A DNA stretch of 64,000 nucleotides, taken from assembly GCA_964392415.1 (NCBI GenBank), contig CAYMPL010000001.1, positions 6,200 to 70,199 on the forward strand, in the 5' to 3' direction. Below, one piece after another: positions 2,993 through 59,401 of this stretch. The DNA is from an uncultured bacterium (GTDB lineage: Bacteria > Bdellovibrionota > JACOXK01 > 2-02-FULL-40-11). The notes beneath the pieces were generated by a model. It had not been told where the DNA came from and made no database searches. It was given only the letters and a program-made list of their open reading frames with translations. Positions within the stretch are counted from its first letter, which is position 1, and each line of letters begins with the position of its first letter. The translations under genes were made by a program, and so were the position numbers.

Positions 2993-3751
2993 TTATCTCC
3001 TCTTCCCAAAGATTCCTTCCCCGACTCTTACTTGCGTCGCCCCCTCTTCAATCGCAATTTTAAAATCATGTGTCATTCCCATTGAAAGCTCCCTCAGCGA
3101 AAGATTTGGGAATGCTTTCTGAGTTTCCAATAATAATTCCCTCATCTTCCTAAAATAAGGGCGTGATTTTTCGGGGTCTTTAAAATAGGGGGGGATGGCC
3201 ATGAGCCCCTGGATATCCAAATAGGTCATTCTGGGCGGAGATTGTTCGAGAATGTCATTCTGAGGCTGAGGCTTGAAAATGTCATTCTGAGGCTCGAAGA
3301 GCCGAAGAATCTCATTTAAAAATGGAATAAGATTTTTAGGAAAAAGCCCTGATTTTGTTGTTTCTTCGCCAATATTGATTTGAATCAGAACTGGCAGACG
3401 GCGATTTTTCTTTTGCAGCTCCTGTTGAAGCTTTGTGGATAACTTTAGGCTATCAAGCGTTTGAATTTCTGAAATGGTATCCGTCAAATATTTGACTTTG
3501 TTCGTCTGAAGGTGGCCAATAAAAATCCATTTTGCGGCATTTCCCAGAATTTCCCATTTTTTGAGGAATTCCTGGACATGGTTTTCACCGAGATAGCTGA
3601 TTCCCGCATCCATCGCCAATTTGATCTTTTCGATCGGTTGTAATTTGGAAACAGCAATCAGCCGGATATCTTGAGGATTTTTTCCGATTTTTTTCGCGGT
3701 TTCAGAGATAATTTGTCGGACAGAGGCGATATTTTCTTTTATATCATTCAC
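2993..3751 (-). CDS. yggS: YggS-family pyridoxal-phosphate homeostasis protein (alanine racemase-fold); carries an in-frame insertion of the dispersed repeat element
   Basis: N-terminus [10 protein letters not shown]...GENHVQE matches YggS/PLPHP; the internal [17 protein letters not shown] stretch is encoded by repeat copies at 3254-3314. Confidence 0.85.
3254..3314. repeat. Dispersed repeat family copy (double head + hairpin core + tail), in frame inside yggS
   Basis: GTCATTCTGAGGCTGAGGCTTGAAAATGTCATTCTGAGGCTCGAAGAGCCGAAGAATCTCA. Confidence 0.8.
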
Positions 3752-3855
3752 AAGCAGGTAACAAACTATATTGCATTACCATTTGAAATAGCACGCGAAA
3801 ACTGTTTGACATTTCCTTGCGTTTTCCTGTAGCAGGAAAACTTGGACGGGACAAT

Positions 3856-3928
3856 GCCCCGGTAGCTCAGTCGGTAGAGCAGCGCCCTGAAAAGGCGCGT
3901 GTCGGCAGTTCGATTCTGCCCTGGGGCA
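3856..3928 (+). tRNA. tRNA-Phe (anticodon GAA)
   Basis: Cloverleaf read by eye: acceptor GCCCCGG/CTGGGGC, D arm TAGCTCAGTCGGTAGAGCA, anticodon stem GCGCC / loop CTGAAAA / GGCGC, T arm GGCAGTTCGATTCTGCC, discriminator A; no encoded CCA. Confidence 0.9.
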
Positions 3929-3936
3929 TTCCACCA

Positions 3937-56528: not shown

Positions 56529-58043
56529 GTGAGGCAAGAAGTCAGTTGCCGCGTAACCGGTTCGATTATCGCTTATGTCCGCAAAGAAAAAAAGAACCTC
56601 GCGCGCTTATTGGAAGGAATTGAGCTTTCAGAAGAGCATCTGCTGGATACCAACAGTTGGGTGTCATCTGAGCTGGCAGATACTCTTTTTGCCCGCCTGG
56701 AGGAAATATTTTATGACAACCAAATTGTCTATAAAGTAGGTCTTGATTCATCTCGTCTCAATTCATGGGGGGCCCTTGATTCCGTTTTCCGGATGATTGG
56801 AGAGCCGCATCTCATCTATTATCAGGCCAGAAAATTTGCTTCCTATTTTTATAAAACCATTGAGATAAGAACTTTGGAAAAAAGTGATTTTCATGTCATT
56901 TTGAAATTCAGTGGCAAGAATATATCTCAGCGCCATCTTCAATATTTACGGGGGGCATTTGAGTCGATCCCAAAGTATTGGGATATTCCGGCCGCTCATT
57001 CCCAAGAGATCAGTGAGGATACCTTTGAGTTCAGATGGGAAAATAAGCAATTTTTCTTTGGTAAAAAAGATTCACAGATTTCTTTCAGTCCTCACCTGAT
57101 TCAGGACACCATTCTTCAACTTGAAAAAACAATTGCCCTCATTGAAAAAAAGAATGGCGAGCTTCAGGAAAAGAATGAAGAATTGACAAAGGCAAATCAA
57201 AAACTCAAAGAAACGATTCAGGAAAAAATTCAAACAGAAAAAATGGCGTCGATTGGGCAGCTTGCGACAGGGGTTGCCCACGAAATTAATAATCCGCTCA
57301 GTTTTGTCATCAGCAATCTCAGCAGGGTGAGAGAATATGTTGGAAAGATGACGCTCATGATCGGTGAATACGATCAGATGGTTCATCAGGTTCAGGAAAA
57401 AGAAAAGGAAGAGATCAAAAGGATTTGTGAGAAAATTCTTGATATCCGGAAAACACGGGAAATCGACTACATTCTTGATGATTTTCCCTTAATTCTTTCG
57501 GAGTGTCAGGAAGGGCTCAGCCGGATGCAGTTGATTATTCAGGATTTGAACAGCTTTGCGCGTGTGGCTCCGGAAGAAATGGATTATTTTGATATACACG
57601 AAGGGATTGAGTCGACGCTTAATATTTTAAGATATGAATTGAAACGAAAGGCTGTTGTCAGAAAAGATTATGGCGTGCTTCCCAAGGTGAAATGCAATTT
57701 GTCCCGTCTGAATCAGGTTTTTTTAAATTTGCTGATGAATTCCTGCCAGGCGATTGAAGAGAAAGGGGAAATTAAGATTGAAACGAAACATCATGATTCA
57801 TGGGTTTCGATAGTCATTTCTGATACAGGCGCTGGGATTGAACCGGAACATCTTGAAAGGATTTTTGAACCGTTTTATACGACTAAGAAAACGGGACAGG
57901 CGATGGGTTTGGGTTTGAGTACCGCGCTTGGGATTGTAAAGAATCATGGAGGCGATATCAAAGTAGAAAGTATTCCTAAATCGGGGAGCCGATTTATCCT
58001 TTCTCTTCCTGTCTCTGTACCTCTTGAAGGTCAGTCGTGTTAG
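56529..58043 (+). CDS. Cytoplasmic sensor histidine kinase (HisKA + HATPase_c)
   Basis: H-box HEINNPL, N/G1/G2 blocks ([20 protein letters not shown]); no TM helices. Confidence 0.85.
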
Positions 58044-59320
58044 CTATTTTGGAAATTCGTGCGCGTGAAGTGTTGGATTCGCGGGGGAATCCAACAGTAG
58101 AGGTCGATGTCGTTCTCGATTCCGGGGCGATCGGTCGCGCAGTTGTCCCTTCAGGGGCATCTACAGGTGAGCTTGAAGCCCTTGAACTTCGCGATCGTGA
58201 TAACAGGCGTTATGGCGGCAAAGGGGTTCTCAAGGCTGTTCATAATGTGAATCGAATCATTGCTCCGGCGCTCAAGAAATTTGGGGCAACGGAACAACAT
58301 AAGGTGGATCAGTTTTTGATTCATCTGGATGGAACTGAAAACAAAAGCCGGCTTGGCGCCAATGCGATTCTGGGGGTTTCGATGGCGGTTGCCAAGGCGT
58401 TGGCTTCTCACTACCATGAGCCGCTTTATCGGCATCTGGGGGGGGCGAATGCCGTGCAGCTTCCTGTACCGCTCATGAATATTTTGAACGGCGGGGCGCA
58501 TGCGGACAATGGGCTTGATATTCAGGAATTTATGATTTTACCTATAGGCTTTCCAAAATTTTCCGAAGCATTGCGTGCGGGGGTGGAGATTTTTCATGCG
58601 CTTCGGAAAATTTTAAAATTAAAAGGGCTTTCCACGGCGGTTGGAGATGAAGGGGGATTTGCCCCCCGTTTGGAGACAAATGAGCAGGCACTTGAATTGC
58701 TGCTAGAAGCGATCGATACATCCGGCTATCTTCCAGCTAAAGAAATTTGGATTGCGCTCGATTGCGCAGCGAGCCAATTATTGGAAAACGATTTATATTA
58801 TCTTGAAGCAAAGTCGAAAAAGAAAAGTAGTTTTGAAATGATTGAATGGTATCGTCGCTTAATTTCAGAATATCCCATTATATCGATTGAGGATGGCCTT
58901 TCAGAAAACGATTGGGAAGGGTGGGGGGAGCTTACCCGAACGCTCGGTGAGAGGATTCAGCTTGTGGGGGACGATATTTTTGTGACCAATCCCAAAATTT
59001 TTAAAAAAGGGATTAAAGCGAAGATTGCCAATGCGATTCTTATCAAACTCAATCAGATTGGAACCGTTACGGAATCTCTCCAGACAATTGAGCTTGCCAA
59101 GAAATCAGGCTATGGGACGATTATTTCACATCGCTCAGGAGAGAGTGAAGATACAACCATTGCTGACCTTGCGGTTGCTACGAATGCAGGGCAGATTAAA
59201 ACGGGATCGGCTTCCCGGACAGATCGGATTGCCAAATATAATCAATTGCTGCGTATTGAAGAAGAATTGGGATCACGGGCAAAATTTGTAGGACCCAAGA
59301 TATTTTCGTTTGTCAGTTGA
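58037..59320 (+). CDS. eno: Enolase
   Basis: Full-length match to enolase signature blocks ([24 protein letters not shown]). Confidence 0.95.
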
Positions 59321-59334
59321 AGGTGTAAAAAAAT

Positions 59335-59401
59335 GTCATCCTGAGCCCGAAGGGCGAAGGATCTCCATCGGAGATTCCTCACGCTTTGCGTTCGGAATGA
59401 C
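59335..59401. repeat. Inverted pair of repeat-family units forming a long palindrome just after the eno stop codon
   Basis: GTCATCCTGAGCCCGAAGGGCGAAGGATCTCC atcg GAGATTCCTCACGCTTTGCGTTCGGAATGAC. Confidence 0.85.

Follow-up and report, generated by a model that had tools for sequence, protein, structure and literature searches.

What are the short hairpin repeats that recur along a 64-kb stretch of DNA from an uncultured groundwater bacterium, and is their conserved fold one of RNA or of DNA? The stretch (64,000 nt of contig CAYMPL010000001.1, Hainich groundwater metagenome; hereafter the window) had been described in a sequence-only reading as carrying a dispersed family of ~30-nt repeats at at least 10 loci. 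The family is real and larger than claimed, as 12 places carry 15 full units and, in addition, 7 half units that consist of the head only. Since precisely these units flank the gene of a small SsnA-family single-strand DNA nuclease in other genomes, they are most likely DNA-level elements and not a new RNA. We consider it probable that the units represent a variant, with a G.A loop, of the hairpin repeats known as CGTC-tagged or Ssn-related, and that they would be recognised as a folded single DNA strand by a predicted SsnA-type nuclease encoded elsewhere in the genome. This variant of the CGTC-tagged repeats looks undescribed so far.

A compensated hairpin unit

The head motif GTCATYCYGAG occurs 23 times in the window, with up to one mismatch allowed, compared to 3.8 expected, a count reached by 0 of 100 shuffles, and the tail motif GARGRATCTC occurs 12 times compared to 1.2 expected. 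The enrichment of head and tail over shuffles is 6-10 fold. Two tail-only matches, at 20933 and 43313, lack a head and are attributed to chance. A covariance model (CM), R1, was built from 12 window copies (alignment A1). It recovered all 12 input copies and, with filters off, added 16653-16690 (-), 18770-18811 and 38538-38576, giving 15 full units at E <= 8e-5, while the next match has E = 0.1; the half units were counted by reading every head in context. The full units span 3281 to 59401, 12 on the + strand and 3 on the - strand. Each of the seven half units lies directly 5' of a full unit, whose first 13-15 nt it repeats, and this architecture is also found in other phyla. Conversely, 742 kb of control loci, picked from metagenomes solely for a CtpA homologue (best CtpA relatives 68-71%), contain 0 full units.

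A unit opens with a (T/C)GTC tag, followed by the outer stem ATYCY/RGRAT of 5 bp; this stem encloses a tandem G.A/A.G internal loop and, within it, an inner hairpin that varies, and a C+TC tail closes the unit. GTC directly 5' and C directly 3' of the stem are invariant in the 12 aligned window copies (G1 T2 C3 and C31). Of the 3-nt tail, which is CTC or CCC, the first C alone is invariant. For comparison we used copies from other genomes and viral contigs, among the matches listed: 314 distinct copies, found with a pattern that left Y and R free, besides sets of 330 copies, 549 units and 121 distinct model-aligned copies. Immediately ahead of GTC, 73% of the 314 have T and 21% have C. The "conserved ends" of the sequence-only reading are present, but their Y and R positions are base-paired and covary as part of the outer stem. 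Each of the two variable stem pairs is Watson-Crick in 308 of the 314 copies, and all four types are seen (TT/AA 105, CT/AG 105, TC/GA 68, CC/GG 25), with T.G mispairs in 1-2 and C.A mispairs in 4-5 copies. In the 121 aligned copies, 92.8% of cells are paired, as opposed to 78.5% in shuffles and 23-52% with slid partners, and cells with a double change number 148 against 42 in shuffles. The first stem pair is A-U in 120 and the second U-A in 118 of these copies.

Inside the outer stem lies the invariant 5'-GA/GA-3' mismatch pair (a 2x2 G.A/A.G loop). The inner hairpin is free in sequence and in length (0 to ~30 nt), with a stem of 0-9 bp and loops of 3 nt upward; the core stems listed earlier are all present in alignment A1. 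Unit length ranges over 21-51 nt, with a mode at 27 nt (127 of 330 copies), for which the core is GCGNAGC (N = C 34, A 34, G 14, T 12, of the 330). Compensation extends inwards as well, as the orthologous phage copies in viral contigs L037 and L027 differ by a compensatory inner-stem change. Nearest-neighbour folding is alike for both strands, and for RNA and DNA; we infer the folding strand from the conserved purine-purine mismatches alone. The modal core is exactly the d(GCGNAGC) motif known as "mini-hairpin DNA" (PMC13037366), a biophysical motif and not a genetic element, and may favour a fold at the DNA level.

The same data bear on whether the pattern belongs to the nucleotide sequence at all. 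A conserved protein-coding segment, or mere chance, could be read into the copies that are translated within open reading frames (ORFs), and into a single 36-nt match, lacking the inner stem, that is common to nine related phage coat genes. Against this, the window copies are mostly intergenic and on both strands, units within genes differ in frame and strand from gene to gene, base-pair covariation is strong, and head and tail are enriched 6-10 fold. The covariation and the intergenic copies refute this explanation, whose probability we regard as negligible. The REP/MITE-like, nucleotide-level character suggested for the family is thus upheld by the compensated hairpin in 121 copies, but the companion suggestion of a small structured RNA is not supported as the main role.

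Units around SsnA-family nuclease genes

A six-frame search of all loci under study for small GIY-YIG ORFs revealed unit-flanked examples (PF01541) in Gracilibacteria (L154), Kiritimatiellae (L157) and Gammaproteobacteria (L187), which match PF01541 over full length (residues 6-78 of 97). The window and the 742 kb of control loci contain none. Tags-outside unit doublets stand on both sides of the nuclease gene at loci L322-L327 as well as in Planktothrix (L334, protein WP_083616022.1) and Spirosoma (L335, protein WP_232563592.1). The product is a single-domain GIY-YIG protein of ~95 aa and a full-length homologue of the NTS-flanked protein of the gonococcal SsnA locus, with identities of 43% (E = 1e-24) for L157 and 40% (E = 1e-20) for L154. 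The gonococcal gene itself lies amid 11 NTS copies in 3.3 kb. Among database homologues, 34 of the 90 that could be judged end in translated-repeat tails (for example EIPRQARDD, ALGMT, DSSLRSE-stop and VIPNEVRDP), compared to 0.1% of shuffled tails. Dispersed units (L159) and a flanked nuclease gene (L326) occur together in one Udaeobacter assembly, GCA_036499425.1. Homologues were also found by tblastn against plasmid-labelled records, in Sinorhizobium, Azospirillum, Novosphingobium, Sphingobium and Neisseria gonorrhoeae; NCBIfam holds no model specific for these nucleases.

SsnA is a 94-aa GIY-YIG nuclease that binds the folded NTS, the Neisseria form of the repeat, solely as single-stranded DNA, on the tagged strand alone and with no RNA binding, and cleaves a few nt upstream of it (PMC11893778). 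Three bases 5' of the NTS palindrome govern cutting and the 3' C governs binding, while the loop is dispensable and extendable (PMC11893778). Homologues of ssnA are typically flanked by Ssn-related motifs, SRM (PMC11893778; Chenal et al. 2025). The invariant GTC and C of the window units stand at the positions of these cleavage and binding determinants.

Each unit can fold on its GTCAT strand into a hairpin, with (T/C)GTC left unpaired at its 5' end and C at its 3' end. The genome that contributed the window is predicted to encode an SsnA-type nuclease outside it, for which the units would be the single-strand DNA targets, multiplied together with the nuclease. Copies would persist where they do little harm, i.e. 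past stop codons, between convergent genes and in frame in tolerant protein loops, and whatever they supply on the way (a stop codon, a Shine-Dalgarno-like GGAGGA, an RNA hairpin) would be a side effect.

The identity of the flanked gene also bears on a second possibility, that of a classical REP/REPIN family moved by a RAYT (a tyrosine transposase of the IS200/IS605 type), which would act on the folded hairpin. The REP-like size, the common inverted doublets, the high copy density, the extragenic placement and the 3'-end enrichment would all suit such a family. Still, the tag reads (T/C)GTC and not GTAG or GTGG, the unit-flanked gene encodes a GIY-YIG nuclease, and a crude motif scan found 0 HUH-Y1 proteins in 2,042 ORFs of repeat-bearing loci. 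Clustering of the ORFs near units returned only phage structural proteins and repeat-derived similarities, and no RAYT flanked by CGTC units is known from the survey of that super-family (PMC3733652). Mobilisation by a RAYT is therefore considered very unlikely.

Three insertion contexts of the flanked nuclease gene are noted separately. In Planktothrix agardhii plasmid p1 (L334, NZ_LR882964.1 18056-19928) it has an MmeI-type restriction-modification gene on one side and drmA, which encodes the DISARM helicase, on the other, and so lies inside a defence island. It separates sufB from sufC in Azospirillum lipoferum 4B (L336), and the ATPase from the permease gene of an ABC-transporter operon in Udaeobacter (L326). 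In the latter two, the flanked gene behaves like a small mobile cassette that lands in operons.

Placement in the window and beyond

The units of the window are as follows (scores in bits refer to the CM).

3225-3253 and 3254-3280, + strand: two units, degenerate or halved, immediately upstream of unit A (14.5 bits for 3225-3256)
3281-3313, + strand: full unit A, GTCATTCTGAGGCTCGAAGAGCCGAAGAATCTC (44.8 bits), in the YggS-like ORF and read antisense
9719-9687 and 9740-9720, - strand: full unit B and a head-only half unit (36.1 bits)
15139-15169, + strand: full unit C (49.5 bits); TGA 15146-15148 in its head terminates the MetE catalytic-domain ORF 14030-15148
16608-16639, + strand: full unit D (50.4 bits), 1 nt past the stop of the CtpA-like (S41 peptidase) gene 15206-16606; left half of a tags-outside doublet
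16674-16653 and 16690-16675, - strand: short full unit E, without inner stem, and a head-only unit (32.8 bits); right half of the same doublet
18770-18811, + strand: unit F, 42 nt, with a decayed core (31.1 bits)
20337-20356 and 20357-20388, + strand: head-only unit and full unit G, with an A-T closing pair and GCA loop (36.2 bits)
27256-27288, 27290-27310 and 27311-27341, + strand: array of full unit H, a head-only unit and full unit I (45.6 and 48.3 bits for H and I)
27582-27612, + strand: full unit J (44.6 bits), upstream of an FGE-sulfatase-domain gene
31911-31932 and 31933-31959, + strand: head-only unit and 27-nt full unit K, core GCGAAGC (39 bits)
38538-38576, + strand: unit L, 39 nt (28.6 bits), at the cysN/cysC junction in the 5' end of the cysC ORF
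47691-47721, + strand: full unit M, equal to the window consensus GTCATCCTGAGGGCGAAGCCCGAAGGATCTC (51.8 bits)
59335-59365, + strand, and 59401-59371, - strand: tags-outside doublet of unit N, a 5-nt spacer and unit O (50.4 and 46.8 bits), 14 nt past the enolase stop
61498-61523, + strand: possible decayed relic ATCCAGGAGACGAAGTTTGAAGGATC, without GTC tag (15.9 bits, E = 0.1)

The annotated genes of the window are all housekeeping genes, with no transposase among them. An assignment of the copies to gene 3' ends holds for the metE-C, ctpA, oppF, eno and DUF366 contexts, and the repeat does supply the metE-C stop codon, but three placements lie inside or at the start of coding regions. The two inverted pairs reported earlier, 16608-16690 and 59335-59401, are real. 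At the first, the unit E locus starts 3 nt past the stop of a CysZ/EI24-like gene, 16694-17434 (-). The H-I array begins 2 nt past the stop of ORF 26198-27253, and the unit K locus fills the entire gap between an oppF-like ABC ATPase gene (stop 31908) and a convergent response regulator gene (-), the stop of which overlaps the tail. Unit M likewise lies between convergent genes, a DUF366 gene (stop 47685, downstream of queC) and ORF 47739-48689 (-). Unit G is located between divergent hydrolase (-) and prs (+) genes. Unit B, in which a second G.A/A.G layer is nested and the head has the variant form CCAGAG, lies between DUF374 and GH3 genes and is antisense to both. The long ORF 27225-29102 runs through units H to J, and its true start is probably downstream.

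In-frame copies are present in the YggS-like, ArsA-like and CysC proteins and in phage proteins. The YggS-like ORF 2993-3751 (-) aligns to E. coli YggS at 1-137 and 173-251, and the extra segment is exactly the three-unit array at 3225-3313, inserted with respect to residues 142-152 of the E. coli protein. Here the two degenerate units and unit A are translated in frame from the opposite strand, including the peptide IFKPQPQND. Unit F is in frame within the ArsA-like gene 18572-19501 (-), where the antisense reading is GILRTIGLWGSQND. The SFRAKRGIS-type pseudo-peptide mentioned in the sequence-only reading is real: P0050 starts with MSFRPPLLSFRAPLLSFRAKRGIS, a translated repeat. A large phage protein family without Pfam match (viral contigs L037, L027, L085, L039, L064, L103 and L109) carries one to several translated units (EILRSAQDD, SARNDG, PQNDN), which sit in a hypervariable linker between two CxxC motifs.

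Several further features of the window were observed. The tail of unit L (38567-38583) gives GGAGGAATCTCAGCATG, with the Shine-Dalgarno-like GGAGGA 9 nt before an in-frame cysC ATG, and may supply an alternative start signal for cysC. MetE is represented by two overlapping ORFs, 13132-14136 and 14030-15148, each of which matches cobalamin-independent synthase domains, the gene being split or frameshifted. A tRNA-Phe gene is located at 3855-3929 (+) and a tRNA-Sec gene at 22900-22999 (-); the latter suggests that selenocysteine is presumably used by the organism.

Turning to the distribution among the matches listed, units are spread patchily over about a dozen bacterial phyla and viral contigs. 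The hosts are Chloroflexota, Acidobacteriota, five candidate phyla radiation (CPR) lineages, Nitrospirales, Verrucomicrobiota, Kiritimatiellia, Omnitrophota, Bacteroidota, Ignavibacteria, Rhodothermales, Clostridia, Gamma- and "delta"-proteobacteria, Bdellovibrionales and Binataceae. The window Tgt is closest to metagenome proteins and shows 65% identity to that of "Deltaproteobacteria bacterium GWA2_38_16". Close relatives of the window's organism exhibit empty, filled and remodelled sites. Synteny with window 35.7-44.9 kb is seen in contig L329, the Tgt of which is 95% identical. The cysN/cysC junction, at 38519-38580 in the window, holds one 39-nt unit with stem ATTCC/GGAAT, whereas in L329 (2760-2840) it holds two 18-nt half units and a 27-nt unit with the compensated stem ATCCC/GGGAT. 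In L332 (430-470; Tgt 88% identical) it holds no unit, and cysC is 182 aa as opposed to 196. All length changes at this site among the relatives are multiples of three. Conversely, L329 has a unit after recJ (9200-9238) where the window has none at the orthologous position (44865-44947). The contig ends inside this unit, and the repeats probably break metagenome assemblies.

Within 150 nt of each other, neighbours among the 549 units are arranged tags-outside in 105 cases, tags-inside in 15 and in tandem in 33, with a median spacer of 28 nt. Two unusual arrangements were seen besides. A Dehalococcoidia chromosome (L140, 6317-7151) contains a 329-bp tandem array (2.5 copies, 96% matches) in which each copy has a tags-outside doublet of identical units, and Spirosoma (L335, 1134-1161) contains TGTCATCCTTCCTGTCGTCAGGATGACA, a fused "double-foot" palindrome tagged at either end, which looks like a doublet without its centre. 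The tagged strand of 12 of the 15 full units in the window is the + strand, which is G-rich throughout (skew ~+0.08) and bears most genes. The relation of tagged strand to GC skew is contradictory between samples (window +0.08, genome loci -0.02, viral loci -0.11) and fails as a test of the replication strand; in-frame antisense coding copies in phage genes may explain part of the viral value.

Placement also bears on an RNA-level reading. In this reading the hairpin, single or as a long doublet, would end or protect transcripts as proposed for REPs, and conservation would result from an RNA-binding factor. Many window copies stand in sense 1-15 nt past stop codons. Outside the window, by crude ORF calls, units lie between convergent gene pairs 61 times and between divergent pairs 24 times, and single units in genome loci lean to the sense orientation (21 vs 9). 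Folds are stable, at -13.6 kcal/mol per unit and -33.3 kcal/mol (z = -4.7) for the enolase doublet. The latter is followed by ATTTTTTT, an exception to the otherwise missing T-tracts. In addition, GTAAAAAAAT precedes both of its tags (59320-59416), so that a T-run follows the doublet in either direction. This gives it the look of a bidirectional terminator, which is not general for the family.

For the 314 copies, no conserved sequence, T-tract or T enrichment follows the unit (T 24-37% at +1 to +8). No unit is found among the terminator-like sites of window 14-33 kb, and such sites are no commoner there than in shuffles. The overall orientation is close to neutral, with 80 units sense and 72 antisense to flanking genes by the same crude calls and, for single units in viral loci, 36 and 34. 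Doublets are found whatever the relative orientation of the neighbouring genes, some copies are read as protein within genes, and G.U-type pairs number 1-2 in 314. Rfam returned no family for the units at gathering scores or at E <= 10, only tRNA-Phe and tRNA-Sec reaching gathering scores, and SsnA does not bind RNA (PMC11893778). Hence the terminator or mRNA-stabiliser role put forward earlier, like that of a small RNA, is not supported as the primary one, given the lack of a T-tract, the near-neutral orientation and the in-frame copies. A secondary RNA effect is possible. As the main explanation, an RNA-level 3'-end element is judged unlikely, albeit less so than mobilisation by a RAYT.

The preferred reading, a G.A-loop variant of the Ssn-related repeats recognised as folded single-stranded DNA, has to be weighed against several observations that count against it. 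No GIY-YIG ORF is present in the 64-kb window. The published SRM expression, HGTCWYN(0-2)YYVSBRHN(0-5)WNVSBRGN(0-2)RNCYNB, has 0 matches in the window and 0 at seven G.A-type loci (L154, L157, L187, L322, L326, L334 and L335). With the same script, the Neisseria locus gives 8 matches and the Azospirillum locus 4. Since the expression misses every G.A-type locus, the family is a variant outside the current definition. The uninterrupted 8-9 bp stem and 4-5 nt loop of CGTC-tagged REPs (PMC3733652) are not found in G.A units. Moreover, the repeats would have to be multiplied by a nuclease instead of a transposase, a process for which the authors of PMC11893778 are not known to have a mechanism. 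Finally, 8 of the 12 window places have a unit in sense <=15 nt from a stop codon which, together with the sense lean of single units, makes an added RNA-level role possible.

A more far-reaching version of the proposal is plausible without being favoured. The G.A unit could represent a separate and very widespread Ssn specificity class missed by the published motif (Chloroflexota, Acidobacteriota, Verrucomicrobiota, Cyanobacteria, Bacteroidota, CPR bacteria and phages). Recognition would then rest on the tandem sheared G.A pairs and on the GCGNAGC mini-hairpin, and the half-unit duplications and rapid in-situ remodelling would be footprints of nuclease-initiated multiplication.

For annotation, the consequences are immediate. 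The units create thousands of spurious or extended ORFs in metagenomes, recognisable by the tell-tale peptides SFRAKRGIS, VILSEAKDL, LGMT, AQDD/ARDD and DSSLRSE, and masking is advised. They can break assemblies (L329 ends in one), and they can contribute stop codons, sequences resembling ribosome-binding sites and in-frame insertions in proteins. The result ties a repeat of about a dozen phyla and of phages to the Ssn nucleases, a recently discovered group acting on single-strand DNA, and widens their known motif space. It also provides candidate pairs of enzyme and hairpin, of a new specificity and with a loop that tolerates inserts, relevant to the programmable single-strand DNA cutting proposed for the Ssn family. 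The empty, filled and remodelled sites offer material for studying how such repeats spread.

Comparison with known repeat systems

A search of literature full text for the repeat sequence and the pseudo-peptides returned only unrelated primers and similar matches. Several known structures were considered and set aside. A hammerhead core was rejected as there is no unpaired CUGA, and a K-turn or SECIS-like G.A quartet as a bulge is missing and lineages that lack selenocysteine also have the element. A Shine-Dalgarno/anti-Shine-Dalgarno mimic does not fit the ATTCT/AGAAT stem type, and tRNA or rRNA fragments were likewise dropped.

REP/REPIN systems with a RAYT share with the G.A units the short extragenic hairpins, as singles and inverted doublets, a single-copy partner-enzyme gene flanked by repeats, and recognition of a folded single strand with an unpaired 5' tag. 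They differ in their GTAG tag, in an HUH-Y1 transposase instead of a GIY-YIG nuclease, and in being lineage-specific, whereas the G.A unit is near-identical across phyla. The Rickettsia palindromic elements are likewise palindromic, in frame in genes and translated, but they are longer and confined to one genus, whereas G.A units measure 22-42 nt and occur in many phyla and in phages. RPE-6 and RPE-4 are equated with CGTC-1 and CGTC-4, respectively (PMC3733652).

The CGTC-tagged REP super-family, CGTC-1 to CGTC-4, was described by Di Nocera, De Gregorio and Rocco in 2013 (PMC3733652) and includes the Neisseria dRS3 and Rickettsia RPE-4/-6 repeats. Its features are a CGTC or TGTC (or CCTC) tag, a stem starting A-T then T-A, a 3-nt tail, mostly tags-outside dimers (TT being rare), in-frame intragenic copies, no dedicated transposase and a range over several phyla including Bacteroidetes and Chlorobi (PMC3733652). 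The G.A units agree in tag, A-T/T-A stem start, tags-outside dimers, in-frame copies, a range over several phyla and, by the crude HUH-Y1 scan, the lack of a dedicated transposase. They have a tail of 3 nt, which is CTC or CCC where the consensus of the super-family is CCA. The pipeline of that study dropped repeats with >1 stem mismatch, and would thus have lost the G.A type. The comparison is one of descriptions and not of consensus sequences, and G.A units may overlap one of the families, e.g. the variable-loop CGTC-3 of Thermotogae.

The closest counterpart is the NTS (dRS3) of Neisseria, with its SRM relatives (PMC11893778). The NTS, CGTCATTCCCGCGMAVGCGGGAATCYRG, and the G.A unit, YGTCATYCYGA[...]GARGRATCTC, are both directional hairpins framed by CGTCAT...ATC. 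Shared, too, are the hundreds of copies, the variable loop and the doublets on both sides of a ~95-aa GIY-YIG gene. In G.A units, conversely, the stem is broken by the invariant tandem G.A/A.G loop and carries an inner hairpin of 0 to ~30 nt, and the hosts include Chloroflexota, Acidobacteriota, CPR bacteria, Cyanobacteria and phage contigs. For Neisseria NTS, 2% of copies are reported to lie in genes (PMC11893778), whereas copies within genes are commoner for G.A units.

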